Counted from the stretch's first letter, positions 1-14,600 are shown. The stretch: DNA of 24,000 bases from an uncultured Desulfuromonadales bacterium (GCA_947259535.1 CAMYME010000032.1:18649-42648), one strand, 5' to 3'. The notes: generated by a model not told the origin, from the letters alone. Numbers and translations: made by a program.

Positions 1-294
1 CTCCTGCAGCAGGACAGCGCTCCGCAAATCTCCAACAGTCTGCTGGCCGATGGCGAGGCGGGCCTGTTCTGTTGGGACCGGAGCGCCCCGACAGTCACCG
101 ACAACCAGATTGTCCGTCAGCAGGAGGAGGGAATTTATCTTGGCCCCGAATGCCGGGCGAAGCTGACCGGCAACCTGATCGAGGCGGTCGATCGTGCCAT
201 CGTCCTGCCTCAGGATGCCGTCATTGACAGCAGTAATCGATTGCAGGCTAATCGGATCGACTTTGCATATTTCCGCCAGGAGGGGAGTCGATGA
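1..294 (+). CDS. C-terminal fragment of a parallel beta-helix (PbH1/NosD-like) repeat protein; the 5' end lies outside the window
   Basis: Frame +1 is open from base 1 to TGA at 292-294. It is absent from the ORF track because it has no start codon in the window. My translation (...TVTDNQIVRQQEEGIYLGPECRAKLTGNLIEAVDRAIVL...) has the same 'N-x-I ... G-I-x-L' periodicity as the next ORF. Its stop overlaps the next start (ATGA at 291-294). Confidence 0.5.
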   Translation, partial: LLQQDSAPQISNSLLADGEAGLFCWDRSAPTVTDNQIVRQQEEGIYLGPECRAKLTGNLIEAVDRAIVLPQDAVIDSSNRLQANRIDFAYFRQEGSR

Positions 295-1355
295 GACGTC
301 TGTTGCTGCTTGTGCTGCTGCTGTTGCCGGCGCCGACGTTTGCATTGCTTCACTACCAAGGGGAGACTTCGCTCTACGAAGATACCGTCTGGGAAGGGGA
401 GGTGCTGATTGACGGAATTCTGACGGTGGCGATGGGGACAACGCTTGAAATCCGCCCCGGAACGGTGGTCCGCTTTACCCGTTTCGACAGTAATTCTGAC
501 CAGATCGGCGAGCATGAGATCTTTATCCAGGGGCGCCTGCTGGCCCTTGGCAGCGCCGAGCAGCCGATCCTCTTCACCTCGGCGGAGACAAGCCCCCGGC
601 CGGGCGACTGGGGGGCGCTGAACATGATGATGAGCGAAGAGGACGGGAACCTGCTCGAACACTGCATCATCGAATACGGCTATCGCGGGTTCCATGCCCA
701 CTTTTCCAAGGGCGAGCTTCGCCACAGCCGGTTCCGCTTCAACCAGCGTGGCGCCCAATTTCAGGAATCTGAGGTTCGCATCGAAGACTGTGATTTCGTC
801 AACAACTTCAATGGTTTGCAGTTCAGAGACGCTACTGTCGCGCTGCTTAATTCCCGAATTCACGACAACCATTGGGGGGTGCGGGCGGTATTCGTCAATT
901 TGCGGATTGAAGGCTGTGAGATCACCGGCAACCGCGTTAACGGCATCAGCCTGCGCGACTCCGATTTCGTTATCGGCAACAACCTGCTGCGCGACAACCG
1001 CCGCGGACTCTATCTGCAGCGCAGCCGCGGGCGGGTGACAGAAAACCGGATTGTCGGGAACCGGGAACATGGCATCTATCTTGAAGATAGTATTGCCGAT
1101 CTGCAGGAAAACCTGCTGGCCGACAACGGACGATCCGGCCTGAAGGTACTAGATTCCGGTGGTGAAGTGATCGGCAATCGGTTTGACGGCAACCACCAGT
1201 TCACGCTGGTCAACGCGGGCGCGGATGATTTCTCCATCGGCGTCAATCAGCTCCCCCTGGTCGGCGCGGAGCTCCTTGACCAACAGGTCCGCCCCGAGCT
1301 CGGTCGGATCGTAGCGCCTGAACCGCTGAAGCGGGCAGCAACCACTGGCCATTAA
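291..1355 (+). CDS. Secreted right-handed parallel beta-helix repeat protein (NosD/CASH/PbH1-like)
   Basis: The 354-aa ORF has an AGGAGGGG Shine-Dalgarno just upstream. The N-terminus is a signal peptide (MRRLLLLVLLLLPAPTFA). It contains many ~22-aa repeats of the type 'I.GN...N...GI.L..S...I..N', for example ITGNRVNGISLRDSDFVIGNNLLRDNRRGLYLQRSRGRVTENRIVGNREHGIYLEDS. Confidence 0.75.
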   Translation: MRRLLLLVLLLLPAPTFALLHYQGETSLYEDTVWEGEVLIDGILTVAMGTTLEIRPGTVVRFTRFDSNSDQIGEHEIFIQGRLLALGSAEQPILFTSAETSPRPGDWGALNMMMSEEDGNLLEHCIIEYGYRGFHAHFSKGELRHSRFRFNQRGAQFQESEVRIEDCDFVNNFNGLQFRDATVALLNSRIHDNHWGVRAVFVNLRIEGCEITGNRVNGISLRDSDFVIGNNLLRDNRRGLYLQRSRGRVTENRIVGNREHGIYLEDSIADLQENLLADNGRSGLKVLDSGGEVIGNRFDGNHQFTLVNAGADDFSIGVNQLPLVGAELLDQQVRPELGRIVAPEPLKRAATTGH

Positions 1356-1377
1356 TTTTCGTATCGAGACAACGAGG

Positions 1378-2283
1378 TTGATTTTGTTTAGACGCAGACT
1401 CCTGATTCTTGCCCTGCTGCTGCCCCTGTTGCTATCCGCCTGTCAGACCCCGGCCGAGCGTCCGGTGATGAAGATCGGCTATATGAACTGCAACAGTGAA
1501 GAAGAGACCCAGAAGCGGTTCAAGCCGCTGACGAAATATCTGTCCGACACGCTGAACGTCGATTTTCAGGCGATTCCGGTCGACACCCAGGATTTCCCGG
1601 AGCGTTTCGCCGCCGGGGAGTTCGAGTTCACCCACACCAATTCGCTGGTTTACGTCATCATGCGCGAGAACCAGCAGATCGAGCTGGTGGCGACCGAAAA
1701 GCGCGGTAATTACGGCACCCACACCGCCGGGGCGATTATCGCCCGCAAGGGGAGCGGGATCGAAAAGCTGGAGGATATCAAGGGTAAGCGGATGATCTTC
1801 GGCCCGCAGCTGGCGCCGAGCGGCTTTCTCGCCCAGTACGACCTGATGCTGCGCGAAGGCCTCGACCCGGAACTGGACCTGGCTTACTACGCGATTCCGT
1901 CCGGCTCGTTCAAACATGAGAAGGTGGTCTACGGGGTCTACTTCGGCCAGTACGACGTCGGCGCTTCGCCGGCTCTTGATCTGGAGCTGATGACCAAGGA
2001 AGGCAAGATCACCGCTGACGATTTCGTCATCCTCGGCCAGAGCCCGATCTTTCCTTACTGCACCTTCGGCGCGCGCAAGGATGTCGATAAGGAACTGGTA
2101 GAAAAGTTCCGTCAGACCCTGGTCGCCCTGACCCATGACGACAGCGTCGAATATCAGGGGGAGAGCCTCAAAGTGCTGGCTTCGGCCTGGATCGATGGTT
2201 TCGAGGCGCTTGAAGACAGCGACTACAACCTGCTGCGGGAGATGGCCAAGCGGGCCAACATGCCGCCTTATCAGGAGTTTTAA
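1378..2283 (+). CDS. PhnD/SsuA-type periplasmic substrate-binding lipoprotein (phosphate/phosphonate-binding-protein fold), with no transporter partner in the window
   Basis: The 301-aa ORF has a signal peptide with a lipobox (LLLSAC). The body resembles the PhnD family (KIGYM...FKPL..YL...L...F...P..., GKRMIFG...S.SG). The start may be TTG 1378 or TTG 1384, and the latter is better spaced from GAGG. No ABC permease or ATPase is adjacent. Confidence 0.65.
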   Translation: MILFRRRLLILALLLPLLLSACQTPAERPVMKIGYMNCNSEEETQKRFKPLTKYLSDTLNVDFQAIPVDTQDFPERFAAGEFEFTHTNSLVYVIMRENQQIELVATEKRGNYGTHTAGAIIARKGSGIEKLEDIKGKRMIFGPQLAPSGFLAQYDLMLREGLDPELDLAYYAIPSGSFKHEKVVYGVYFGQYDVGASPALDLELMTKEGKITADDFVILGQSPIFPYCTFGARKDVDKELVEKFRQTLVALTHDDSVEYQGESLKVLASAWIDGFEALEDSDYNLLREMAKRANMPPYQEF

Positions 2284-2286
2284 TCT

Positions 2287-2826
2287 TTGCTCAAAGACCG
2301 TTTCGACATACTTCTCGGCTGCCTGCTGCTGGTCTGTACCGCGGTGATCGGCGCGCTGCTGCTCGGCGGCGGGTCCCTGGCGTCGCAGCGTGACCTGACG
2401 GTCGACAAGGCGCTCGAGCAGGAGATGGCCTACCAGGCCAAGGTCAGCTTTCTCGAACGGCTCTATGCGCCGGTGACCGAGCTGCGCGCCGACGGACAGA
2501 ACGAAGCGGCGCTGCTCAAGCTCGACGAGCTGTCGCGACGCTACCCGGATGAAGCCCACGGTGAGCTGCTGCGCGGTGAGATTCTCCTGCAGCTGAGCGC
2601 GATCCCGGAAGCGACCAGTCATCTGGCGCGCGCCGTGCGGATGAACGGCGACTATGTCGATCAGCACAGTCCGCTTTCGCGGCGTGAGCTGATCGACCGT
2701 CTGCTGGCAGAAAATCTAACCGGACTGAAACTGCGCGCCAGCAAGAACCCTGCGGCAAGCGGACTGCAGGCGGCGCTGAAAGATCTGTATTATCTTCAAG
2801 GGCGACTGGCCGGGGGCTGTGAGTGA
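2287..2826 (+). CDS. Hypothetical N-terminally membrane-anchored helical (TPR-like) protein
   Basis: The 179-aa ORF starts 3 nt after the previous stop. It has one N-terminal TM helix (ILLGCLLLVCTAVIGALLLGG) followed by an alpha-helical, Leu/Ala/Glu-rich soluble part. I recognise no family. Coding status is supported by tight operon packing and a stop that overlaps the next start. Confidence 0.5.
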   Translation: MLKDRFDILLGCLLLVCTAVIGALLLGGGSLASQRDLTVDKALEQEMAYQAKVSFLERLYAPVTELRADGQNEAALLKLDELSRRYPDEAHGELLRGEILLQLSAIPEATSHLARAVRMNGDYVDQHSPLSRRELIDRLLAENLTGLKLRASKNPAASGLQAALKDLYYLQGRLAGGCE

Positions 2827-3899
2827 TGCGTCTGGCGCTGCGTGATCCGCATACCTGGCTGGTAATGCTGGCCGGAGGGCTGCTGGGGTTGAGCGGCGTC
2901 TGGCTGGCGGTCCTCGGCAACCCGCAGAATTCCGGCATCTGCGTCTCCTGCTTTCTGGAGAACAGCGCCGGGGCGCTTGGTCTGCACGACAACGCCCGCA
3001 TGCAGTATCTGCGGCCGGAATTGATCGGTTTCGTGCTCGGTTCCTTTTTCGCCTCGCTCGGCTTCCGGGAATTCTCCTCCCGCGGCGGCAGCGCTCCTTT
3101 GCCGCGCCTGCTGGCCGGGGTGTTCCTGATCGTCGGCTGCTCGGTCTTTATCGGTTGTCCGATCAAACTGTTTTTACGTTTGGCGGCCGGAGATCTGACC
3201 ACCCTGACCGGCCTGGCCGGGCTGGTGGCCGGCGTCTGGCTGGGGCTCAAGGGACTGGCTGGCGGGGTGCATCTCGGCAGCGCGAACAAACAGCGCGGCG
3301 GCTCCGGCCTCTGGACACCGCTGCTGTTCGTGCTGATGCTGGTGTTTCTGCTGGTTCGGCCCGGCTTTGTTCTCTTCTCTGAGCGCGGCAGCGCGGCGGA
3401 GGCGGCGCCGATGTTGATCGCGCTGGTGATCGGCCTGGTGATCGGGGCGCTGGCGCAACGGACCCGCTTCTGCATCACCGGCAGTCTGCGCGACCTGTTT
3501 ATCATGGGCACCCGCGCGCAGCTGTTCTGGGGTTTTTCGGTCTTTCTTCTGCTCGCTTTCGGCGGTTCGTATCTGACCGGTAATTTCACCCCCGGTCTTT
3601 ACGGTCAGCCGGGTGCGCACCTAGACCTGCTCTGGAGCTTTCTCGGCATGCTGCTGGTCGGGTCGGTTTCGGTACTGATCGGTGGCTGCCCGTTCCGCCA
3701 GCTGATCAAGGCCGGAGAAGGGGATGCCGACGCCGGACTGGTAGTCGTTGGCATGTTCATCGGCGCCGGGCTGGTGCAATCCTGGCAGATCGCCGGGACG
3801 GCGGCCGGGGTGTCGCTTTACGGCAAAGTGGCGGTGGTCGCCGGGTTGGCATTCTTCCTGCTGAATTTGCTGATGTTTCGTGAACGTTCCGCCAGTTGA
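2823..3899 (+). CDS. yedE: YedE-family polytopic membrane protein of the subfamily associated with selenium metabolism (putative Se/S transporter)
   Basis: The 358-aa protein is very hydrophobic, with about 9-10 TM helices. It carries paired Cys motifs as I recall for the selenium-type YedE subfamily: GICVSCF, FIGCPIK, RTRFCITGSLRD and GGCPFRQLIKAGEGD. The GTG 2823 / ATG 2826 start overlaps the upstream TGA (2824-2826). Confidence 0.75.
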   Translation: MMRLALRDPHTWLVMLAGGLLGLSGVWLAVLGNPQNSGICVSCFLENSAGALGLHDNARMQYLRPELIGFVLGSFFASLGFREFSSRGGSAPLPRLLAGVFLIVGCSVFIGCPIKLFLRLAAGDLTTLTGLAGLVAGVWLGLKGLAGGVHLGSANKQRGGSGLWTPLLFVLMLVFLLVRPGFVLFSERGSAAEAAPMLIALVIGLVIGALAQRTRFCITGSLRDLFIMGTRAQLFWGFSVFLLLAFGGSYLTGNFTPGLYGQPGAHLDLLWSFLGMLLVGSVSVLIGGCPFRQLIKAGEGDADAGLVVVGMFIGAGLVQSWQIAGTAAGVSLYGKVAVVAGLAFFLLNLLMFRERSAS

Positions 3900-4240
3900 T
3901 GGCGTTGCATCTGAAAGGGTCGGTTTTGTCGTTATTACAAAGAAATCCGGAAATTGTCTGGCGGCGTGAAAAACGGCGCGAAGAACAGGTGCTCAAAGAG
4001 CTGGAGGAGGGGGGCGAGGTCGCAGAGCGCGGCACGGTGATCCTGCTGATCTCCGGCATGATGCATCAGCTGAACCTGTTGGGCGGCATGATCTGGGATC
4101 TGTGCGACGGCAGCCGCAGCCAGGCGCAGGTGGTCGACCAGCTGCTTGAAGAGTTCGACGTCGAGCGCGCTGAACTCGAAACCGATGTCGCCGAGTTTAT
4201 CGACGACCTGCTGCAACGAGGCTGGCTGATCCATGGTTGA
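3896..4240 (+). CDS. PqqD-family protein (RiPP recognition element / peptide chaperone)
   Basis: The ORF is 113-114 aa. It shows the classic PqqD pattern: NPEIVWRRE...GTVILLISGMMHQLNLLGGMIWDLCDGSRSQAQVVDQLLEEFDVERAELETDVAEFIDDLLQRGWLI. The ATG at 3899 overlaps the yedE TGA (3897-3899). Confidence 0.85.
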   Translation: MMALHLKGSVLSLLQRNPEIVWRREKRREEQVLKELEEGGEVAERGTVILLISGMMHQLNLLGGMIWDLCDGSRSQAQVVDQLLEEFDVERAELETDVAEFIDDLLQRGWLIHG

Positions 4241-5237
4241 TATGACGACCGAACAATTTTCCGCGCCCCTGACTTTCAACTGGACGCTCTCCTATCGCTG
4301 TAACTTCAGCTGCAGCCACTGCTACAGCCGCGACGAGGTGGCCGAAGAGCTTCCGACCGAGCAGATCAAGCAGGTTGTCGATGTGCTCGCCAGGCAGCAG
4401 GTGCCGTTTATCAACTTTGGCGGCGGGGAGCCGCTGATCCGCAACGACCTGCTGGAGATCACCCGCTATGCAACAGCCGAGGGGCTGAACGTCTCGATGA
4501 ACTCCAACGGCTGGCTGCTCGATTATGCCACCGCCCAGGAGCTGAAAGAGGCCGGCTTCAAGAGTGTCGGTATCAGCATCGACAGTGCAACCGGCGCTTC
4601 GCACGACGAGTTCCGCAACATGCCGGGCTCTTTCGAAAAAGCGACCGCCGCCCTGGATGCGCTGCACGCCGCCGGCGTCAGAACCACCATGAGCTCGGTT
4701 ATCTCCAGGATTAACTTCAGGGAATTTCACGCGCTGCTCGATCTGGCCCGCGAACATCATGTGGAACAGGTTTACCTGCACAACTTCAAGTGCAGCGGCC
4801 GCGGCTTCAAAAATCGCGAAGATCTGGACCTGACTCCGCAGGAGTGGAAGGATTTCTACCTCGAGGCGCTTCAGGTCAAGAACGAGACCAAGGACCTGCT
4901 GATCTCCTTCGACGATCCGGTGATCGCCTCATTGCCCGGCTATCAGGATGACTCGCTGGTCAAGGGGAGCAGCTGCGGCAAGTTGTCCCTGCACCTGCGC
5001 CCCAATGGCGACATCACCCCTTGCGGGTTCATTCCATTGGTGGTTGGTAATATTTTGTCAGATGATTTTGAGGATCTATGGTACAATTCCCCTGTTTTAA
5101 CCGCGATGCGCAACAAGGAAGCCAAAGGGAAATGCCAGGGCTGCGGCTCCTACCAGGATTGTCTTGGTGGTTGCACCGCCCGGGCCTTTGCTACCACCGG
5201 CGACCTGAGCGAGCCTGATCCTCATTGTTGGAAATAG
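4233..5237 (+). CDS. Radical SAM / SPASM-domain peptide-modifying enzyme
   Basis: The 334-aa protein has the CxxxCxxC cluster motif (CNFSCSHCYS) and a GGGEPL SAM-binding motif. Its C-terminus has a complete SPASM signature: CGKLSLHLRPNGDITPC, then CQGCGSYQDCLGGC, then a terminal PHC. The start (ATG 4233 or 4242) overlaps or abuts the PqqD stop at 4240. Confidence 0.9.
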   Translation: MVDMTTEQFSAPLTFNWTLSYRCNFSCSHCYSRDEVAEELPTEQIKQVVDVLARQQVPFINFGGGEPLIRNDLLEITRYATAEGLNVSMNSNGWLLDYATAQELKEAGFKSVGISIDSATGASHDEFRNMPGSFEKATAALDALHAAGVRTTMSSVISRINFREFHALLDLAREHHVEQVYLHNFKCSGRGFKNREDLDLTPQEWKDFYLEALQVKNETKDLLISFDDPVIASLPGYQDDSLVKGSSCGKLSLHLRPNGDITPCGFIPLVVGNILSDDFEDLWYNSPVLTAMRNKEAKGKCQGCGSYQDCLGGCTARAFATTGDLSEPDPHCWK

Positions 5238-5272
5238 CCGTTGAAAGTCTCTTTTAACCCGCACAATCGATT

Positions 5273-5277
5273 GGAGG
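5273..5277 (+). promoter_or_regulatory. Shine-Dalgarno (GGAGG) for the 18-codon ORF
   Basis: A perfect GGAGG lies 7 nt upstream of ATG 5285. Confidence 0.6.
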
Positions 5278-5284
5278 TGTCAGC

Positions 5285-5341
5285 ATGAAGAAGTACATGA
5301 AGCCCCGGGTGGTCGGTTCCTCTAACGTTCACCCCTGCTAA
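5285..5341 (+). CDS. Unannotated 18-aa ORF, MKKYMKPRVVGSSNVHPC; candidate precursor peptide for the flanking PqqD/rSAM-SPASM enzymes
   Basis: Hand translation runs from ATG 5285 to TAA 5339-5341. A consensus SD sits at optimal spacing. The ORF lies in the only sizeable gap (5238-5398) of an otherwise gap-free operon, between two maturase paralogs. It is followed 8 nt later by a perfect hairpin. It is too short for the ORF track. Nothing else in the sequence tests whether it is coding. Confidence 0.55.
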   Translation: MKKYMKPRVVGSSNVHPC

Positions 5342-5349
5342 ACGGAACT

Positions 5350-5383
5350 GGGGGGGCAGGTAACTGCCCCCCCAATTCTTTTT
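5350..5383 (+). terminator. Intra-operon intrinsic-terminator-like hairpin (probable partial terminator or transcript-stabilising element)
   Basis: GGGGGGGCAG (5350-5359) pairs perfectly with CTGCCCCCCC (5364-5373). The loop is a GTAA (GNRA-type) tetraloop, and AATTCTTTTT follows (5374-5383). The hairpin sits 8 nt after the small-ORF stop and 15 nt before the next ATG. Confidence 0.65.
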
Positions 5384-5398
5384 CGAGCGAGTTCATTT

Positions 5399-6346
5399 AT
5401 GGCTGTTGACCTGTTGGATGCCCCGCTACGGATCAGTTGGGATCTCTGCCCTGCTGGACAATCCCCACTTTCGAATAACCAACTGCTGCAGGTCGCGAGG
5501 CAGCTGGGCGAGGCCGGTATTTTTTTCGTCACGCTGGAAGACTCCCCGTTAAGGCATCCGCAGATCGGCGAGCTGTTGCAGGAGCTGACCTCGGGCGGTT
5601 GCCAGGTCGCCCTGGTGACTGACGGCTCTGGTGCCGAGCGTGCGGTGCTTGCGCAACTGGAGAGCCAATTCGCGTTGTTTGTCGATGCCGCCAGTTGCAT
5701 TGAAAACCGACGATTGAACGCCGATCTCCTCGGCGAGGTGTTCAGCGAGATCCGCCAGCACCATGCGGAGCCAGCGCTACTCTGGATGCCGAAGCCAGGT
5801 CAGCTGGCTTTGTTGCCGGAATTATTGGTCTTCTGCGCCCGTTGGCAGGTCAGTCATTTTAAGTTGCCAAACCAGAAGATCGGTGCTAATTGTGAAAATT
5901 CCTCAATGCAGACTCTGCCCGACTGTGATGATCTCGACCGGTTGGCAGCGCTGCTCGCGTCTGCAGGCCTGCCTGAGGTTGCTGGTTTGCAGCTGGAAGT
6001 GCACGACCTGTTTATCTGGGAATTGCTGCAGCCGTTGACCGGCGGGCAGAGAAGCGAGTACGGTGGATGTCAGGCGGCCAACAGCCTGGGGCACATCAGC
6101 GGCCAGGCTGAGCTCTGGCCCTGCTCCTCCTGGCCGGAACCGCTCGGTTCCCTGCTGAACGAAGATCTCCTCGATCTCTGGCAGTCGCCGCAGCGGCTGA
6201 AGGTTCGCGAGGAGATCGCCCGACTGCCGCTCGGTTGTGACGGTTGCCGTGACTTCCAGGTCTGTTTCGGCGGCTGTCGCGGCCTTTCCCGCTTCTGCCG
6301 GGACGATGGCCTGGAGCGTGATCTGCTCTGTCGGGAGCGGCGCTGA
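5399..6346 (+). CDS. SPASM-domain protein; a degenerate radical-SAM paralog lacking the CxxxCxxC and GGE motifs
   Basis: The 315-aa N-terminus aligns by eye with the rSAM enzyme (APLRISWDL- versus APLTFNWTLSYRCNFSCSHCYS; FFVTLEDSPL versus FINFGGGEPL), but the SAM-cluster cysteines are deleted. The C-terminus retains the SPASM cysteines: GGCQAANSLGHISGQAELWPC, then CDGCRDFQVCFGGC, then later Cys residues. Confidence 0.8.
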   Translation: MAVDLLDAPLRISWDLCPAGQSPLSNNQLLQVARQLGEAGIFFVTLEDSPLRHPQIGELLQELTSGGCQVALVTDGSGAERAVLAQLESQFALFVDAASCIENRRLNADLLGEVFSEIRQHHAEPALLWMPKPGQLALLPELLVFCARWQVSHFKLPNQKIGANCENSSMQTLPDCDDLDRLAALLASAGLPEVAGLQLEVHDLFIWELLQPLTGGQRSEYGGCQAANSLGHISGQAELWPCSSWPEPLGSLLNEDLLDLWQSPQRLKVREEIARLPLGCDGCRDFQVCFGGCRGLSRFCRDDGLERDLLCRERR

Positions 6347-6355
6347 AAGAACGGT

Positions 6356-7519
6356 TTGATGAGCGATTTGATTTACCTCGATAATGCTGCCACCAGTCAT
6401 CCCAAGCCGGAAGCCGTCTACCGGGCGGTAGAAGACGCCATGCGCATGGGCGCCAGCCCGGGCCGCGGCGGACATCAGCAGGCGCTGTCGGCCGAACGGT
6501 TGGTGTTTGAAACCCGGGAGACACTCGCCAATTTTTTCAACGCCGAGGACTCCGAACAGTTCATCTTTGCTGCCAATGCCACCATGGCGATCAACCAGGC
6601 CCTGTTCGGTATATTGGAGTCCGGCGACCGGGTGGTGACCACCAGCCTGGAGCATAACGCCGTCGCGCGGCCTTTGCGGGCACTGCAGGAGCGCGGCGTC
6701 AGGGTCGAAAAGGTCGCTGCCGGGCCGGATGGGGTCGTTGCCGCTGAAGCGTTGAAAGAATCCTGTCTGGCAGAGAAAACCAGGCTGCTGGTTGTCAATC
6801 ACTGCTCGAATGTCTATGGCGCCCTGCAGCCGATCGAAGGGCTGGGAAACTGGTGCCGTGAACAGGGCATTCTGTTTATGGTTGATGGCTCGCAGAGCGC
6901 CGGTTATTTCCCCATCGATTTTCAGGCTTTGGCTGTCGATCTGTTCGCAGCTCCCGGCCATAAAGGTCTGCTCGGGCCGCAGGGGACCGGTTTTTTGTAT
7001 GTGCGCAAGGGGTTGCAGCTGACCCCATTAATCTATGGCGGCACAGGCGCGAACTCCGGTTCCGACCTGCCTCCCGAGCATCTCCCAGAGCGACTCGAAT
7101 GCGGCACCCTGAACACCCCTGGTCTTGGCGGACTGAAGGCGGCGCTTGAGTTTTTGCAGGGAGTTGGCGTAGAACAGGTTCGCAAGCATGAGCTGCAGGC
7201 GATCAATAGAATATTGAATGGGCTCGGCAACATCGAAGCTGTAACCCTCTACGGGCCGGAATCTGCGACACAGCGCGGCACCGCCATCTCTTTCAATCTG
7301 CAGGGGCGTGATCCGTCCGAGGTCGGTTTCTTACTCGACCAGCAGTATAACATCAGCCTGCGGGTCGGCCTGCATTGCGCCCCCGACGCTCATCGCAGCA
7401 TCGGGACCTATCCGCTGGGAACAGTGCGGGTGAGCCCCGGCTATTTCACCACGGAATCTGAAATCGACACTTTCCTTGGCGCGATTCGTGACCTTGCTCA
7501 CAACCGCGCTAAAAGCTGA
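6356..7519 (+). CDS. Class-V aminotransferase-fold PLP enzyme; cysteine desulfurase / selenocysteine lyase family
   Basis: The ORF is about 386 aa, and the likely start is ATG 6359. The N-terminus is IYLDNAATSHPKP...GASPGRGGH. The PLP-lysine motif is APGHKGLLGPQGTGFLY. The active-site Cys lies in RVGLHCAPDAH. It starts 10-13 nt after the SPASM gene. Confidence 0.8.
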   Translation: MMSDLIYLDNAATSHPKPEAVYRAVEDAMRMGASPGRGGHQQALSAERLVFETRETLANFFNAEDSEQFIFAANATMAINQALFGILESGDRVVTTSLEHNAVARPLRALQERGVRVEKVAAGPDGVVAAEALKESCLAEKTRLLVVNHCSNVYGALQPIEGLGNWCREQGILFMVDGSQSAGYFPIDFQALAVDLFAAPGHKGLLGPQGTGFLYVRKGLQLTPLIYGGTGANSGSDLPPEHLPERLECGTLNTPGLGGLKAALEFLQGVGVEQVRKHELQAINRILNGLGNIEAVTLYGPESATQRGTAISFNLQGRDPSEVGFLLDQQYNISLRVGLHCAPDAHRSIGTYPLGTVRVSPGYFTTESEIDTFLGAIRDLAHNRAKS

Positions 7520-7547
7520 CTGGCAGATTCTCAAAAGGAATGCGATA

Positions 7548-7820
7548 ATGAGATCAATAACCCGCTCTCTCCCGGTTCTGATGGTCCTGGTGTTTCTGCT
7601 CTCCTGTTCATTACCGCCCGAACAGCCGGTGACCCGGAAGATGCTTAAAGCGTCGGGTGTTTATCGCACCTTCAAAATCGAAGAGTCACCGGAAGAGCTG
7701 CTCAATGCTCTCAATGTCGAGGGTGAGGTGGTGATAAAGGCGCTTGAGAGCAACAGGCCGGTTTTCGTCAAGATCCTGGCGACCGCCGAAGGGCTGCAGG
7801 TCACCACCTACGACCGCTGA
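7548..7820 (+). CDS. Small hypothetical lipoprotein
   Basis: I prefer ATG 7548 (with AAAGGAA upstream) to the track start at 7476. It gives MRSITRSLPVLMVLVFLLSC, a signal peptide plus lipobox. The protein is 90 aa and I recognise no family. Confidence 0.5.
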   Translation: MRSITRSLPVLMVLVFLLSCSLPPEQPVTRKMLKASGVYRTFKIEESPEELLNALNVEGEVVIKALESNRPVFVKILATAEGLQVTTYDR

Positions 7821-7870
7821 AACAAAATTGAGGTAACTTCTGTCAACTCTAGAATGAAGGCTGCGATGCG

Positions 7871-9187
7871 ATGAAAAATTATGTTCTGGATACCAATGTC
7901 CTGCTGCATGATCCTCAAGCGATTTTTAAATTTTCCGACAATAACGTTATTATTCCGCTGACCGTCATCGAAGAGATCGATCGGTTTAAAAAGGAACAGA
8001 GTGAAACCGGCCGCAACGCCCGCCAGATCTCCCGGATGGTCGACGAATTCCGCGCCCACAACAGCCTGGTCGAAGGGGTTCCGCTGGAAAGCGGCGGGAC
8101 GCTGAAAGTCGCCATTTACCGCGAGGAATTCCTGAAGAAATTGCCGCCGGAGTTGCGCGTCGACCGTGGCGACAACCGGATCCTGGCGGTCGCTAAAGAT
8201 CTGGAGGAGAACCTGCCGGAAGGTTCGGTTTTCTTTATCACCAAGGACATCAACCTGCGCATCAAGGCCGATACCATCGGCATGATCGCCGATGATTACC
8301 TGAACGACAAGATTGCCATCGACGATCTTTACACCGGGACCACTGAGCTGCATGTCGATCGTGACGCGGTCGACCTGTTTTTCGAGCAGGGCTATCTCGA
8401 CCTTGAGGAAGAGTATAATTCGAATCAGGGAATTACCCTGATCGATGCGGGGAACCCATCTCATTCGGCGATCGGCCGTTACGATGCCCTGAACCAGCGC
8501 CTGACCACTCTGCTGCGGGTGCCCAAGGAAGGGGTCTGGGGGATTCATCCGCGCAATCGCGAGCAACAGTTCGCCTTCGACTTGCTGCTCAACGACGACA
8601 TCCAACTGGTCTCGCTGGTCGGCAAGGCGGGCACCGGGAAAACCCTGCTGGCGATCGCTGCCGGGTTGTTCAAGACCGCCGATGAAAGCATCTACAGCCG
8701 GCTGCTGGTTTCCCGCCCGGTCTTCCCCATGGGTCGCGACCTCGGGTTCCTGCCCGGCGACGTCGAGGAAAAGCTGGCACCCTGGATGCAGCCGATATTC
8801 GATAATGTCGAGCTGCTGCTGTCCAGTGTCGAGGAGGGTGGCAAGCGCAAGCGTGGCTATCGTGAATTGATCGATCTCGGCCTGATGGAAATCGAGCCGC
8901 TGACCTATATTCGTGGTCGCTCCATCCCGCGGCAGTACATGATTGTCGACGAAGCGCAGAACTTGACACCGCACGAAATCAAAACCATTATTACCCGCGC
9001 CGGGGAGGGGACCAAGATCGTCCTGACCGGCGACCCGTACCAGATCGATAATCCCTACGTCGATTCTTCGAGCAACGGCCTGACCTATGCGGTCGAGCGG
9101 CTCAAAGGGCAGGAGATTGCCGGTCACATGACGTTAAGCAAAGGCGAACGTTCCTCCCTGGCGGAATTGGCGGCAAACCTTCTCTAG
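7871..9187 (+). CDS. PIN-domain / PhoH-like ATPase fusion protein (PhoH2/YlaK type)
   Basis: The 438-aa protein has an N-terminal PIN signature (YVLDTNVLLHDP...IIPLTVIEEID). It also has PhoH Walker A (GKAGTGKT) and Walker B-like (IVDEAQNLT) motifs and the C-terminal GDPYQID motif. Confidence 0.85.
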   Translation: MKNYVLDTNVLLHDPQAIFKFSDNNVIIPLTVIEEIDRFKKEQSETGRNARQISRMVDEFRAHNSLVEGVPLESGGTLKVAIYREEFLKKLPPELRVDRGDNRILAVAKDLEENLPEGSVFFITKDINLRIKADTIGMIADDYLNDKIAIDDLYTGTTELHVDRDAVDLFFEQGYLDLEEEYNSNQGITLIDAGNPSHSAIGRYDALNQRLTTLLRVPKEGVWGIHPRNREQQFAFDLLLNDDIQLVSLVGKAGTGKTLLAIAAGLFKTADESIYSRLLVSRPVFPMGRDLGFLPGDVEEKLAPWMQPIFDNVELLLSSVEEGGKRKRGYRELIDLGLMEIEPLTYIRGRSIPRQYMIVDEAQNLTPHEIKTIITRAGEGTKIVLTGDPYQIDNPYVDSSSNGLTYAVERLKGQEIAGHMTLSKGERSSLAELAANLL

Positions 9188-9204
9188 CTCAGAATTGCAT
9201 TTCG

Positions 9205-10224
9205 ATGTTGTTATTAGCCCTGGAAAGCTCCTGTGACGAAACCGCCGCTGCGGTTGTTCGTGACGGCACCGCTGTTCTCTCCAACCTGATCGCTTCGCAG
9301 GCCGATCTGCACGCCGTTTATGGCGGCGTCGTACCCGAGCTGGCATCTCGACGTCACCTTGAAGTGATCAATCCGCTGGTCGAAGCGGCGCTCAATCAGG
9401 CCGATGTCACTCAGGGCGACCTCGATGGCGTGGTGGTGACACGTGGTCCCGGACTGATCGGGGCACTGCTGGTCGGACTTTCGTTTGCCAAGGCCTTCGC
9501 CTATGCCCGTCAGATTCCGTTGGTCGGGGTTCACCACATCGAGGGGCACATCCTTGCCATCCAACTGGAAAAAAAGGTCGAATATCCCTTCCTGGCCGCT
9601 GCGGTCTCCGGAGGGCATACCCATCTGTTTCGGGTCGATGGTATCGGCCAGTACCGGCTGCTGGGACGGACGGTGGATGACGCTGCCGGTGAGGCCTTCG
9701 ATAAGGTCGCCAAGATGCTCAAGCTTGGTTATCCCGGTGGCCCGATTATTGACAAACTGGCTTCCAGCAGTGACGACGGCGGAATCGTCTTCCCCAGGCC
9801 GATGCTGAAAAAAGAGAATTACGATTTCAGTTTTTCCGGCATGAAGACCGCTGTGCTCAATTATCTCCACTCGCTAACCGGTGAGCCGGACGAGCGGCAG
9901 ATCGCACAAATCTCCGCAGCCTTTCAGACCGCCGTGGTCGATGTGCTGACGAAAAAAGCGCTGCGCGCCGCCGCAGCCGAAGGGCTGAACCGGATTGTCG
10001 TTGCTGGCGGAGTGGCCTGCAACAGCGGTTTGCGCCGTCGTTTCGCAGAGCTTGCCGAGCAAAACCAGCTCGAGGTGCATTTCCCTTCACCGATCCTCTG
10101 TGCCGATAATGCGGCCATGCTCGCAGTGGCAGGGGAGCACTATCTGACCCAGGGTTTCCGCTCTGGCCTCGACCTCAACGCTGTTTCTAGCTGGCCGCTG
10201 GAGCAGGCCGCCTGTTTCCCCTGA
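9205..10224 (+). CDS. tsaD: tRNA N6-adenosine threonylcarbamoyltransferase
   Basis: The 339-aa protein has LALESSCDETAAAV at the N-terminus, the VGVHHIEGH metal-binding motif and the GGVACN motif. Its length is typical of TsaD (Gcp/YgjD). Confidence 0.9.
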   Translation: MLLLALESSCDETAAAVVRDGTAVLSNLIASQADLHAVYGGVVPELASRRHLEVINPLVEAALNQADVTQGDLDGVVVTRGPGLIGALLVGLSFAKAFAYARQIPLVGVHHIEGHILAIQLEKKVEYPFLAAAVSGGHTHLFRVDGIGQYRLLGRTVDDAAGEAFDKVAKMLKLGYPGGPIIDKLASSSDDGGIVFPRPMLKKENYDFSFSGMKTAVLNYLHSLTGEPDERQIAQISAAFQTAVVDVLTKKALRAAAAEGLNRIVVAGGVACNSGLRRRFAELAEQNQLEVHFPSPILCADNAAMLAVAGEHYLTQGFRSGLDLNAVSSWPLEQAACFP

Positions 10225-10240
10225 GTCGAAGTGAAACACT

Positions 10241-10738
10241 ATGTGGCGGCGATGGGGCTTTTTTCGGCAGTTCAAACTTAACCTGATAAGACTGATCCGC
10301 CTGCGCGCCGAACCGGATGCCGTTGCTCGTGGCATGGCGCTGGGGCTGTTCATCGGCATGACCCCGACTTTCGGGGTGCAGATGGGCATCGCACTGTTCT
10401 TTGCTTTTCTGTTGCGCCAGAATAAAATTGCCGCCCTGATCGGGGTGTGGAACACCAACCCGCTAACCGCTCCATTTATTTACGGACTGGAGTACGAAGT
10501 CGGCCGGGTTCTGCTGGGCATTGCTCGTCCATACAACCTGGATGCCTTTACCTACGAGGCTTTAACTGAACTCGGCTGGCAGGTGCTTGCCCCGCTCTGC
10601 CTGGGCAGCCTGGTTCTGGGGATTCCGGTCGCGGCGATCGGATACGCCTTGACGGTTCGCTTTGTCCCGGTCATGCGTCAGTGGCGGATTCCCCGCTGGC
10701 CGCGACGCCGCCAGGAAGATATCTCCTCTGATGAATAA
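10241..10738 (+). CDS. DUF2062-family small membrane protein
   Basis: The 165-aa ORF contains the pattern P..VA.G.ALG.FIG.TP..G.Q...A......R.NK.AA..GVW..NP.T, which I recall for DUF2062. It has 3-4 TM segments. Confidence 0.6.
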   Translation: MWRRWGFFRQFKLNLIRLIRLRAEPDAVARGMALGLFIGMTPTFGVQMGIALFFAFLLRQNKIAALIGVWNTNPLTAPFIYGLEYEVGRVLLGIARPYNLDAFTYEALTELGWQVLAPLCLGSLVLGIPVAAIGYALTVRFVPVMRQWRIPRWPRRRQEDISSDE

Positions 10739-11540
10739 TTCCCGCTACCGGACAAAAAAACGTTTCGGCCAGCATTTCCTGCATGACCGTTCAGTCATTG
10801 ACCGGATCGTTGCCGCGGCCCGTATCGAGGCTGAGCACGAAGTGGTTGAAATCGGCCCCGGATTAGGCGTGCTGACCGACGAACTGCTGCCGCGCGCGGC
10901 CCGGGTTCATGTCATGGAGATCGACCGCGACCTGATCGAACGCCTTGAGGCGCGGGATGATGAGCGGCTTACCGTACATGCCGGCGATGTCCTCAAGCTT
11001 CCCTGGCAGCAGTGCCTGCCTGACCCGCCCTATACCCTGGTGGCCAACCTGCCTTACAACATTTCCAGCCAGATCGTTTTTCGGCTGCTCGACCACCGTC
11101 CGTTGTTCCGGCGCATGGTGCTGATGTTTCAGCGCGAGGTTGGAGAACGCCTGGTCGCGGCTCCCGGCGGCAAAGATTACGGAATCCTCTCGGTGCTCTG
11201 TCAGCTCTGGTACGAGATTCGCGTCGTCACCCTGGTCAAGCCGGGCGCCTTTAACCCGCCGCCGAAAGTCGATTCGATCGTCCTTGATTTCCTGCCCCTG
11301 GAACAACCTCGGGTCGATCCGGTTGATGAAGCGTTTTTTGTGAAGGTTGTCAAGGCTGCATTTACCCAGCGGCGCAAAACCCTGCGAAACAGTCTGCAGG
11401 CCGGAGGATTTCCTGCAGCGCAGATCGCTGCCGCCTTGCCACAGGCCGGCATCGACCCCGGCTGTCGCGGTGAGACCCTGACGCTGGCCGATTTTTCCCG
11501 TCTGGCCAAATCCCTGTTCCATTTCCAGAAAAATAAATAA
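10731..11540 (+). CDS. rsmA: 16S rRNA (adenine1518/1519-N6)-dimethyltransferase
   Basis: I prefer ATG 10731 (MNNSRYRTKKRFGQHFL...), which overlaps the upstream stop by 8 nt. The SAM-binding motif is VVEIGPGLGVLT, and NLPYNISS is also present. The protein is about 269 aa. Confidence 0.9.
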   Translation: MNNSRYRTKKRFGQHFLHDRSVIDRIVAAARIEAEHEVVEIGPGLGVLTDELLPRAARVHVMEIDRDLIERLEARDDERLTVHAGDVLKLPWQQCLPDPPYTLVANLPYNISSQIVFRLLDHRPLFRRMVLMFQREVGERLVAAPGGKDYGILSVLCQLWYEIRVVTLVKPGAFNPPPKVDSIVLDFLPLEQPRVDPVDEAFFVKVVKAAFTQRRKTLRNSLQAGGFPAAQIAAALPQAGIDPGCRGETLTLADFSRLAKSLFHFQKNK

Positions 11541-11553
11541 TCTTAACCTTGCC

Positions 11554-11582
11554 TTGCTTACCCTCTCGGCTTCGATTATCAT
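11554..11582 (+). promoter_or_regulatory. Possible sigma-70-type promoter for the glutamate dehydrogenase gene
   Basis: TTGCTT (11554-11559), a 17-nt spacer and TATCAT (11577-11582) lie in the 124-nt intergenic gap. This is a pattern match only. Confidence 0.25.
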
Positions 11583-11664
11583 TTCATGACGATCAGCGGC
11601 GTTCTGCTAATCTGTCGTCTAACGCGCTGGACTTACATAAAAATATCGCTCAAGGGAGTTCGGG

Positions 11665-14600
11665 ATGAAAGTGACTGTTGCCCGCGGCGGACAATTGTCC
11701 GAAGGTCATGACGCAGCATTCCAGAATGTGAAACTCGAAGCCGAATTGAAACGCCTTGGGCAGGAGGAGTGGTTAGAGAAGCTCATCCAGCTGGCGGACC
11801 TGCTGCGAGTACAGATTCCGGAAAATTACCTGGTATCCCTCGATTCTGCAGAGTTGGCGCAACGCCTGATCAGTGTCGGAAACTTTCTCCGGCAGCGGGA
11901 CAGCGAAATCAAAGTCGAGCTGATCCCCTTGGCGACGCCGGGTCATTACTCGCTGTTCTGCAGCGCTCCCGATGCCAATCATATTTTTTCCTCGGTTCAA
12001 GAATACCTGCAGCGTAAATCGCTGCACTTTCGTGTTATCTGCCATCCGATCTTCTCTGTCGAGCGCCATGCCGGGACCTTGAACCGGCTTACCGAGGGGG
12101 ACAGTTCGCTGGAGAGAGAGTCGTTCATCTGGATGGAGCTCGAACGGTTGCCGGTCCGCCTGATCGAAGAGCTCAAGCAGGGCGTCGCGATGATCGTCGC
12201 GGCAGCTTTGCAGACTTATCGCCACCGCGAGCAGACCTGCCAAAGGATTGATGGGCTGCGACAGATTCCCAACCTTGCCCGGTATGCCGATCTTTTCGAC
12301 TGGCTGATGGAGGACAATTTCATCCCGGTCGCCAGCCGCTGCTATCATTTCGCCGGTGGCGACCCGCAGGCTGCACTGGTCGAAGAACCTGAGTATGCTC
12401 TCGGGCTGGCTGAGCTTTATGATCAGCCGTTCGATGTCCATATTCAACCGGTGCCACTGGCTCCCCAGCTGATTGAATCGATGGTGCGGCACAGCGGCGA
12501 TGTCGCTTTGGAAAAAACCGAGCTGCGGTGCCCGCTGCACCGTTTCGAGCGTTTGACGTACATCGGCTTTCGCGAGACTCTGCCTGCTGGCGGCTACCGC
12601 GAACATGCCTTCTGGGGGTTTTATACCCAGCAGAGCATCGATGCCAATACCTACTCGATTCCGGCCCTGCGGCAACGGATCGAGACCATTCAGGCTCAGC
12701 TGAACATCCTGCACGACAGCCATAACTATCGGAAAACCGTTCAGATTTTCAACACATTTCCCAAGGTCGAGCTGTTTTTGATGGGGGATGACGAACTGCG
12801 CCGGATGATGCGCTCGTTCACCCAGATGCATCGCCAGGCGGGGGTCAAGGTGGTGGTCGCGCCCAGCATGTCTGAGCACGGCCTGACCCTGCTGTTGATC
12901 ATGCCAAAGGACTTCTACTCGCCGGACCATCTCTCGCGCATCGAAACCTACCTGCGCCGCTATTTTCGCGCGACTTCAGTCGAGTCGCGACTGATCCATC
13001 TTTCGTCGGACTATCTGAGCCTGCATGTCAATTTGCGACTGAATAAGAGCGAAGTCCATATCGAAATCCAGCAACTCGAACAGGGGCTGACCAGGCTGGC
13101 GCTGCCTTGGAAGCTGAAGTTTCGGGACCTGCTGGAAAAGAACTTCGCCGCCGATTCCTTCGATATCTGGGAGCGCTACATCAAGGCCTTTGACAATGAC
13201 TACCGGGCCCGCACCCACCCGCGCTTTGCCGTTCGCGATGTCCGCAATATCGAACAATTGCTGCGCGAAGAGCAGGACTTTTTCGATATCTGGGGTCCGT
13301 TTCACGAGCGCGATGATTACTACCGCCTGCAGTATTACAGCTTGCAGGAAAGCTACCTCAATGACCTGATGCCGTTCCTGGAAAACCTCGATCTGTACGT
13401 AATCGAGGAAGTCGATTTCACCATCGCCATTACCGACCGGACGGCTTATATCAAGAGCTTCGCCATCCGCCCGAGAACGACGACCGCGTTTGATTTCAAG
13501 GAACTTCGGGATTTGCTGCTGAATACCTTGTCGGCGATGAAGAAGAAAGAGGTCGAAAATGATTATCTGCATCGCCTGTTGCCGCTTACGGCTCTAACCT
13601 GGCGGCAGATTGATGTTTTTCGCGCCTATCGCAACTATTATTTTCAGCTCGGCTGCCCCTTTACCAAAAAACGTGTTGCGTACGCGCTGATCAACAATGC
13701 CCGTGTGGCGCTGCTGCTTTACCGATATTTTGCCGGGCGCTTCAAGCCGGCTGAAGAATGGGCCGACCCGATGACGCGTGAGCTGGAAGTGCTCTCGCCG
13801 ATCCGGCAGGAGCTGGCTGCGGCTCTTGAGGAGGTCAGTGACAGCAACGAAGACAGGATTCTGCGCACCCTGTTCAACCTGATCGATTCAACGGTGCGAA
13901 CCAATTTCTTCCTGCGCAGTGAAAGCGACGATTATTTCATCTCCTTCAAGGTCAGTTCGCTCGGCGTCATCGACATGCCGGCGCCGCGTCCGCTGTACGA
14001 GGTCTACGTCCATTCAGCGACCATGGAGGGAATCCACCTGCGCGGCGGCAAGGTCGCCCGTGGCGGCATCCGCTGGTCTGACCGCCCGGACGACTTCCGC
14101 ACCGAGGTGCTCGGCCTGGTCAAAGCGCAAATGACCAAAAACGCCGTGATTGTTCCGGTCGGCTCCAAGGGTGGTTTTGTGACTAAAAAGACCAGCCCCA
14201 ACCGCGAGCGCATGGGCGAACTGGTGAAACAGGCCTATCAGACCCTGATGCGCGGGCTGCTCGACCTGACCGACAACCGGACACCTGAAGGGGTCATCCG
14301 GCCGCCGGGAATCATCGCCTACGACGATCAGGATCCCTACCTGGTGGTGGCCGCCGACAAGGGTACAGCGCACCTGCCCGACACCGCCAACGCGGTCAGC
14401 GAGTCGTACAACTTCTGGCTGGGCGATGCGTTCGCCAGCGGCGGTTCCCACGGTTACGACCACAAGAAGCTGGGGATCACCGCCCGCGGCGCCTGGGAGA
14501 GCGTCAAACGGCTGTTCCGCGAGATGGGGCACGATACCCAGTCCGAACCCTTTAGCGTGGTCGGCATCGGCGACATGAGCGGCGATGTGTTCGGCAACGG

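Follow-up and report, generated by a model that had tools for sequence, protein, structure and literature searches.

The window analysed here is a 24,000-nucleotide stretch of DNA from an uncultured Desulfuromonadales bacterium (GCA_947259535.1, CAMYME010000032.1:18649-42648). Between a gene for a radical S-adenosylmethionine (SAM) enzyme with a SPASM domain and a gene for a SPASM-only protein, it contains an unannotated open reading frame (ORF) of 18 codons. An earlier note on this DNA had suggested that this ORF encodes the precursor peptide missing from the operon. We examined the ORF, its neighbours and its relatives in other genomes and metagenomes by computational comparison.

The 18-codon ORF and its signals

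The ORF encodes the peptide MKKYMKPRVVGSSNVHPC. The earlier note had placed its start and stop codons, a GGAGG Shine-Dalgarno motif at 7-nt spacing and a stable hairpin directly downstream, and all of these were found exactly where it put them (Table 1). It had also described the gap at 5238-5398 as the only real intergenic gap of the operon. This was confirmed, as no other intergenic space between positions 291 and 7519 exceeds about 22 nt. A degenerate DNA pattern for the peptide matched once in the window, with 0.00 matches expected even when two mismatches were allowed; in degenerate form, the mini-gene can be written as ATGAARNNNTAYNNNAARCCN(13)WSN(7)RTNCAYCCNTGYTRR.

The stem-loop at 5349-5374, with 9 G-C pairs among its 11, is followed by ATTCTTTTTC. 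Its minimum free energy is -33.2 kcal/mol (z = -6.2 against 200 shuffles), and it was by far the strongest terminator-like site when positions 1-8000 of the window were scanned. A G/C-rich stem-loop followed by a T-run has the form of an intrinsic (rho-independent) terminator, and termination is predicted from the sequence. The hairpin starts 7 nt past the stop codon and the next gene begins only about 25 nt beyond the hairpin, at 5399, which means that read-through is required. For this reason, the hairpin is probably a leaky terminator or an mRNA-stabilising stem. At the gathering score, Rfam gave 0 matches across the whole window, and the gap corresponds to no known RNA family. On the opposite strand, an ORF of 120 aa (5338-5700, minus) overlaps both the hairpin and the beginning of the SPASM-only gene; it probably only shadows the GC-rich coding region.

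Conservation and selection

Two sets of loci were compared. The genome set comprised 79 loci fetched via the radical SAM protein, and the gap 3' of the radical SAM gene was screened in each by plain ORF listing, without any peptide pattern. The metagenome set was assembled from the peptide side with a degenerate DNA pattern and yielded at least 120 peptide copies; counts for this set are those among the matches listed. Because the pattern fixes the length and several residues, the uniform 18-codon length of the metagenome copies is partly by construction.

An 18-codon ORF lies between the radical SAM and SPASM-only genes in 38 of the 79 genome loci, and it ends in H-P-C-stop every time. In these 38 loci the radical SAM proteins are 50-88% identical to that of the window and the SPASM-only proteins just 36-67%. 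At least 41 metagenome loci have the ORF in the same place. The earlier note had advised looking for a conserved short ORF in syntenic gaps, and it is the same 18-codon ORF that was found in both sets.

At the genome loci, 38 distinct DNA sequences encode 18 peptides, and minor-allele counts at codon positions 1, 2 and 3 are 36/53/220. The counts were 99/121/427 for dispersed copies, which lie outside any such gene cluster, and 48/54/233 in a further comparison made alongside these. When 159 copies in all were pooled, pN/pS calculated by the Nei-Gojobori method was 0.23 in frame versus 1.45 and 1.77 in the two shifted frames, in agreement with the bias towards synonymous substitutions that the earlier note had named as a check. 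Mean nucleotide identity among the same copies was 0.73 in the ORF and 0.26-0.29, the random level, in the 30 nt on each side.

The peptide is conserved in two parts, a block at the N-terminus and the HPC at the C-terminus. M1, K2, Y4, K6, P7, H16, P17 and C18 are invariant and S12 and V15 nearly so; the H-P-C end to which the earlier note had drawn attention is kept in full, and the longer S-S-N-V-H-P-C almost so. Cassette loci from genomes keep a Shine-Dalgarno-like motif at the spacing seen in the window, as do 39 of 40 cassette copies and 74 of 76 dispersed copies of the metagenome set. A strong hairpin was found 3' of 75 of 80 cassette copies and 74 of 77 dispersed copies among the matches listed, at a distance of about 0 to 25 nt from the stop codon; a few cassette loci have none. 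The hairpin sequence differs between contexts. The pattern is not that of a locus in which only the hairpin is conserved, a possibility that the earlier note had raised: the Shine-Dalgarno motif and the presence of the hairpin are kept, and the hairpin sequence is not.

The codon for Ser12 (window 5318-5320) is TCN in 79 of 80 cassette copies and AGY in 74 of 79 dispersed copies. These are old gene lineages, one in cassettes and one dispersed, and both have kept the serine although passing from one codon type to the other takes two base changes. A selenocysteine variant of the terminal Cys was also considered, following a side idea of the earlier note. It was rejected at the codon level, as no TGA occurs at codon 18 in any copy in roughly 200 loci checked.

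These comparisons show a gene that is translated and held under strong purifying selection. GC-rich intergenic DNA often contains short ORFs and this one falls below the length limits of gene callers, and so one could suppose that it arose by chance and that nothing in the gap but the terminator hairpin has a function. Frame-specific conservation, fixed length, a conserved Shine-Dalgarno motif and an invariant HPC-stop, together with flanks and hairpin sequences that are not conserved, refute this supposition, and we regard its probability as vanishingly small.

The peptide had no match to a Pfam or NCBIfam family even at E <= 10, and none to the PqqA and MftA precursor models. When 5.8 billion proteins were queried with a 54-aa concatenate of three natural peptide variants, only six entries were retrieved; all are the same ORF with a spurious N-terminal extension and are unnamed or called "hypothetical protein". 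The family is nearly missing from this collection because the gene is shorter than the limits of gene callers. With more than 150 loci and only six mis-started entries, it marks a systematic blind spot of annotation.

The surrounding cassette

The genes around the ORF are listed in Table 1. The PqqD, radical SAM/SPASM and SPASM-only genes are adjacent and on the plus strand, in an order repeated in the 79 related loci, and the stop codon of the YedE-family gene overlaps the start of the PqqD gene. Judged by its profile matches, the cassette is a variant of the GeoRSP system defined in NCBIfam.

Table 1. Features of the locus. Positions are those of the window except in the last row, where they are those of the metagenome loci named.
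Feature	Position	Strand	Basis
NosD-like beta-helix protein, conserved accessory	291-1355	+	Pfam Beta_helix 76.0 bits, NosD 65.8 bits
PhnD-like periplasmic binding protein, conserved accessory	1378-2283	+	Pfam Phosphonate-bd 178.8 bits
TPR (tetratricopeptide repeat) protein, conserved accessory	2287-2826	+	weak: TPR_16 21.2 bits, under gathering score
YedE-family putative selenium/sulfur transporter	2823-3899	+	TIGR04112 393.4 bits (cutoff 200)
PqqD-family peptide chaperone (RiPP recognition element)	3896-4240	+	Pfam PqqD 65.8 bits; TIGR04302 94.3 bits (cutoff 100)
Radical SAM/SPASM enzyme, SAM-cluster motif CNFSCSHC	4233-5237	+	TIGR04303 GeoRSP_rSAM 452.7 bits (cutoff 400); Pfam Radical_SAM and SPASM
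Shine-Dalgarno motif GGAGG	5273-5277	+	read directly; 7-nt spacer to ATG
18-codon peptide gene, candidate precursor/substrate	5285-5341	+	stop codon TAA at 5339-5341
Intrinsic-terminator-like hairpin (11-bp stem, GTAA loop) and T-rich tail	5349-5384	+	folding, conservation
SPASM-only protein	5399-6346	+	TIGR04304 101.6 bits (cutoff 300)
Class-V aminotransferase-fold cysteine desulfurase / selenocysteine-lyase-like enzyme, EF2568 family	6356-7519	+	TIGR01977 446.5 bits (cutoff 377)
Dispersed peptide copies, examples from metagenome loci L080-L199	L112 4176-4232; L117 3994-4050; L109 6199-6255; L095; L167		

The closest solved structure to the radical SAM enzyme is PqqE (6C8V, E = 3.5e-20), and its best secondary family matches are AhbD, MftC (199.2 bits), NirJ and PqqE, which are SPASM enzymes acting on peptides or tetrapyrroles. 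The best matches to the protein itself, at 88% identity, come from Malonomonas and from Desulfuromonadales metagenome-assembled genomes. The earlier note had taken the two genes flanking the ORF for paralogs. In a BLASTP comparison of the two proteins, the SPASM domains were 32% identical (E = 2e-9); the N-terminus of the SPASM-only protein is colinear with that of the radical SAM protein and has no cluster cysteines. The two are thus paralogs, as the note had said, and the SPASM-only protein is the degenerate one, without CxxxCxxC. For the desulfurase, the next-best model was the selenocysteine lyase SclA, at 316.7 bits and under the cutoff of 525.

The layout agrees with that of RiPP (ribosomally synthesised, post-translationally modified peptide) systems that depend on a RiPP recognition element (RRE): a short co-directional ORF lies beside a PqqD RRE and a modifying enzyme, in 38 genome and at least 41 metagenome loci. 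Cassettes of this type are also the only context of the peptide that contains peptide-modifying machinery (PqqD RRE and SPASM radical SAM enzyme). We consider it fairly probable that the adjacent PqqD and radical SAM/SPASM enzymes have the product of the ORF as their substrate, a precursor peptide in the manner of PqqA and MftA. Synteny, the conserved C-terminus and selection on the gene all lend support to the candidate precursor put forward in the earlier note.

Downstream of the desulfurase, a small gene of about 90 aa (7548-7820, plus) encodes a lipoprotein with a signal peptide and lipobox and no Pfam match. It lies between the desulfurase and PhoH2 genes in the window and in GCA_030605225.1 (12334-12609 of the locus fetched from that assembly), and may or may not be a member of the cassette. 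The gene order that follows, PhoH2 (PIN and PhoH domains), TsaD, DUF2062, RsmA, a SurA-like protein and NAD-glutamate dehydrogenase (window 7871-16428), is also common to both and marks the window as DNA of a close relative within Desulfuromonadales. The 1,587-aa ORF of the window was considered as a cytochrome with a second peptide copy behind it. This was rejected, as it encodes the NAD-glutamate dehydrogenase and has no peptide 3'.

Occurrence among cassette types

Cassette types were counted in those genome loci that had enough flanking DNA. An in-cassette peptide was present in 30 of 35 cassettes that contain the desulfurase and in 0 of 23 canonical Geobacter-type loci, which have no desulfurase. 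The remaining five desulfurase-type cassettes are Geothermobacter-like, with abutting radical SAM and SPASM-only genes, and none has the peptide (0/5). The in-cassette peptide therefore co-varies with the desulfurase and was seen in no cassette without it.

Both cassette types come with YedE, the binding protein, the TPR protein and a NosD-like protein. Between the two types, identity is 62-69% for YedE, about 54% for the radical SAM protein, 31-44% for PqqD and 24-35% for the SPASM-only protein. In Geobacter-type loci the radical SAM and SPASM-only proteins pass their NCBIfam cutoffs (620 and 343.5 bits in locus L049). In canonical Geobacter-type loci (L051, 411-3656 and 7565-8632), genes for a ResB-like protein, an ArsP-type permease fusion and a small cupin lie upstream of PqqD, and a YedE-like transporter lies downstream. 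The presence of a YedE-like transporter in Geobacter-type loci as well indicates that YedE-type transport is shared by both cassette types.

An intergenic region of 100-210 nt was noted beside the binding-protein gene in four Geobacter-type loci (L047 6874-7053, L049 6874-7077, L050 6890-7098 and L054 6939-7036) and is absent from the others; in L047, L049 and L050 it lies between the binding-protein and TPR genes. Similar short ORFs occur on both of its strands (VRGECPVERM..., MRGERPVALR...), which suggests a conserved palindromic element. We also looked for an alternative precursor in the peptide-less loci by all-against-all clustering of short ORFs. No candidate survived, as only shadow frames of conserved genes were obtained.

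The co-variation with the desulfurase bears on a second explanation, that the peptide is a sulfur or selenium carrier and not a radical SAM substrate. Its C-terminal Cys would take a persulfide or selenosulfide from the desulfurase, or chalcogen imported by YedE, and hand it on, as do TusA/YedF/YeeD-type proteins. Small Cys proteins of this kind normally accompany YedE/YeeE transporters, and no YedF/TusA-like gene was found near the cassette; the gene of about 90 aa past the desulfurase was tried as the missing carrier and rejected as a lipoprotein, and it is the only other small gene nearby. The single invariant Cys would suit a carrier, as would YedE, the best-conserved member of the cassette, to which it is joined by translational coupling. 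However, this explanation leaves the PqqD chaperone and the flanking radical SAM gene unexplained and gives no role to the invariant N-terminal Y/K/P block, and the known carriers fold as domains of about 75-80 aa. We consider it distinctly unlikely as an account of its own. A carrier role is compatible with a precursor role and could be one step in it.

Copies outside the cassette

Whereas 41 of the metagenome copies listed lie in cassettes of the window's type, several kb of flanking DNA around the other 79 encode nothing homologous to a cassette protein. These dispersed copies are self-contained mini-genes with a Shine-Dalgarno motif, 18 codons and a terminator, and lie 20-110 nt downstream of a same-strand gene. 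Three contexts recur, with anchor families unrelated to each other. At least 29 loci have giant multi-haem cytochromes of TIGR01904 type (Geobacter CxxxxCH/CxxCH type, up to 2,201 aa), at least 14 have secreted FG-GAP/ASPIC-like proteins, and at least 14 have an HD-domain protein (Pfam) between DnaJ-like and BI-1/YccA-like proteins (judged by sequence). No alternative maturase recurs among the neighbours of the dispersed copies listed. The cytochrome anchors have a median identity of 41% and lie on contigs of 35-64% GC, and this divergence suggests an old or recurrent linkage with cytochrome genes. Dispersal as a mobile DNA repeat was rejected because neither the flanks, with the identity of 0.26-0.29 given above, nor the hairpin sequences are conserved, and because only 1 of 2.9 million viral contigs has a copy.

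The dispersed copies raise the question of whether the peptide is a stand-alone small protein with a function of its own, such as a partner of multi-haem cytochromes or a small regulator, for which the cassette is one of several settling places and the radical SAM enzymes act elsewhere. Two thirds of the listed metagenome copies are outside cassettes, the commonest dispersed context spans the wide range of anchor identity and GC content just described, cassette and dispersed copies form separate old lineages by their Ser12 codons, and canonical GeoRSP loci do without a nearby copy. Such a protein would not account for the precise position in the cassette, which is the operon's only gap, has closely packed maturase genes on both sides and recurs in about 80 widely divergent loci. 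The dispersed contexts (cytochromes, FG-GAP, HD/DnaJ/BI-1) have no common function, and the peptide has no signal sequence, which would put extracellular cytochromes out of its reach unaided. Orphan extra copies are, moreover, known for the precursor gene pqqA. On balance, we regard a stand-alone function as unlikely.

The same copies help to judge whether the ORF is a cis-acting leader or arrest peptide, at whose H-P-C-stop a pausing ribosome would mask the 5' arm of the hairpin and so control read-through into the SPASM-only and desulfurase genes. The 7-nt distance from stop codon to hairpin in the window would suit this, the downstream genes need read-through, and arrest peptides such as TnaC are known to have a Pro near the stop codon. 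Many dispersed copies, however, precede a convergent gene or nothing that could be regulated. The distance to the hairpin varies over the whole range given above, the few cassette loci without a hairpin have the peptide nonetheless, and the peptide is conserved along its whole length in unrelated contexts. A regulatory role of this kind is very improbable.

Some unusual copies were noted. Two dispersed copies share a contig in one case among the matches listed. Locus L092 has tandem copies about 420 nt apart (5958-6014 and 6382-6435); the second, 3' of an apparent cytochrome 3' end, has 17 codons (MKYVKPMIVGSGNVHPY*) and ends in HPY through a change of TGC to TAC, with its own AAGGAGG and hairpin. 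The protein P0006 ends in HPG. These HPY and HPG copies, which have no terminal Cys, may be rare natural variants or decaying copies. Among 2.9 million viral contigs, one carries a peptide copy: a 78-kb phage contig of 34% GC (IMGVR_UViG_3300002231_000542; L204 6695-6751, minus) has a copy encoding MKKYMKPKVVGSSSVHPC, flanked on one side by a DNA helicase gene (phrog_62) and on the other by the gene of a radical SAM domain protein (phrog_9298); the copy lies about 375 nt upstream of this radical SAM gene. It was rejected as a second pairing of the peptide with a radical SAM enzyme, since three related phage radical SAM loci (47-50% identity) have no such ORF.

Proposed mechanism and points against it

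For the favoured reading, that the peptide is a precursor modified by its neighbours, we infer how the peptide is bound, where and how it is modified and what the extra copies do, as follows. The conserved N-terminal block M-K-K/R-Y-x-K-P would be bound by the PqqD-type recognition protein, which would present the invariant V-H-P-C end to the radical SAM/SPASM enzyme. Hydrogen-atom abstraction would follow and the C-terminus would be modified. Candidate reactions are an oxidative decarboxylation or cross-link of the C-terminal Cys, by analogy with MftC; a cyclophane-type His-x-Cys link, although the enzyme of the window does not belong to the HtkB/HaaB family; or an insertion of sulfur or selenium. 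The YedE transporter and the desulfurase may supply the sulfur or selenium, and the catalytically degenerate SPASM-only paralog may serve as an Fe-S partner or scaffold. The strong Shine-Dalgarno motif and a leaky hairpin would give far more peptide than enzyme, and stand-alone copies would raise the supply of a precursor of which each product molecule uses up one. That the whole peptide is nearly invariant speaks for a fixed cellular role of the product, as a cofactor, a carrier or a metal or chalcogen ligand, and against a variable antibiotic.

Several observations weigh against a precursor role. The five complete Geothermobacter-like loci and all 23 Geobacter-type loci have no peptide within +/-4 kb, and a scan of the intergenic spaces of peptide-less loci gave no conserved alternative short ORF. 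The larger share of the listed metagenome copies (79/120) has neither a cassette homolog nor another recurrent maturase nearby. Profile scans of the cassette gave no leader peptidase or exporter gene, and 18 residues would hardly accommodate a recognition sequence as well as a core. The precursor role itself is something we infer from sequence and context, which support it well.

A more specific proposal would make the peptide the precursor of a new peptide-derived cofactor or redox/chalcogen carrier of the PQQ/mycofactocin type, possibly with extra sulfur or selenium. It would be made by a GeoRSP-like cassette of metal-respiring Desulfuromonadales, and through extra copies behind giant multi-haem cytochrome genes its supply would be tied to extracellular electron transfer. 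The host bacteria are known for such electron transfer. We offer this proposal tentatively, as rather unlikely in its entirety.

Comparison with known systems

Other classes of SPASM maturase resemble the system of the window to different degrees. SCIFF maturases were not among the top profile matches of its radical SAM enzyme. Models for sactipeptide and ranthipeptide enzymes scored low (StsB 108.5 bits, cutoff 625; AlbA 77.7 bits, cutoff 850), and the peptide has one Cys. The thio(seleno)oxazole maturase SbtM (NCBIfam TIGR04082) is, like the candidate enzyme, a radical SAM/SPASM maturase, and it modifies Cys or Sec of a short peptide. However, matches to TIGR04082 were weak and partial (17.8 bits for the SPASM-only protein of the window and 74.7 bits for the radical SAM protein of L049; cutoff 350), and there is no TGA at the position of the peptide Cys.

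Enzymes that form three-residue cyclophanes (triceptides) act on aromatic-x-X triplets, including those with His first (HtkB, HaaB), and HtkB is reported to link His-C2 to Lys-C-beta (PMC11499958). The invariant Y4-x-K6 and H16-P17-C18 of the peptide fit aromatic-x-X, which is a resemblance of motif only, and Cys as third residue is not among the motifs reported in the sources consulted. The radical SAM enzyme of the window, unlike these, lies outside the cyclophane-synthase families, with WgkB as the best model (91.7 bits, cutoff 650).

The PQQ system likewise has a very short conserved precursor, PqqA, beside a PqqD-family chaperone and a SPASM radical SAM enzyme, and the enzyme of the window matched TIGR02109 at 127.7 bits. 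This is far below the PqqE cutoff of 381; moreover, the peptide has the conserved end H-P-C and no Glu/Tyr pair, and pqqB, pqqC and pqqF are absent. A stem-loop also follows pqqA, extra or orphan copies of which occur in some genomes, and PqqA has a basic/aromatic-x-K-P stretch near its N-terminus. In mycofactocin synthesis, the chemistry takes place at the extreme C-terminus of the short conserved peptide MftA, requires a PqqD-like chaperone (MftB) and yields a cofactor, not an antibiotic. The MftC match noted above is among the best secondary matches of the radical SAM enzyme of the window, but it is under the cutoff of 265. The peptide ends in Pro-Cys and not Val-Tyr, and in place of mftD, mftE and mftF the neighbours handle sulfur or selenium.

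A literature search gave no paper that mentions GeoRSP or its TIGR accessions and no described substrate, and nothing relevant on the peptide motif, on radical SAM with SPASM, PqqD and selenium, or on YedE with radical SAM. NCBIfam has no model for the 18-aa peptide. GeoRSP (TIGR04302/TIGR04303/TIGR04304) has the same three-gene core of PqqD, radical SAM/SPASM and SPASM-only proteins, accessory partners are common (YedE-like, PhnD-like, TPR and NosD-like), and the radical SAM enzyme of the window scores above its cutoff. In contrast, the PqqD protein (94.3 versus 100), a clear but divergent PqqD domain, and the SPASM-only protein (101.6 versus 300) score under theirs, and cassettes of the window's type also have a cysteine desulfurase and the gene for the 18-aa peptide, neither of which is near canonical loci. 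As a RiPP precursor, the peptide would be unusual: it is extremely short, hardly varies across wide divergence, exists in multiple dispersed copies and is placed among sulfur- and selenium-handling genes. It represents a new, unannotated family and the first concrete substrate candidate for the orphan GeoRSP radical SAM/PqqD system, which a defined candidate of 18 residues makes testable.

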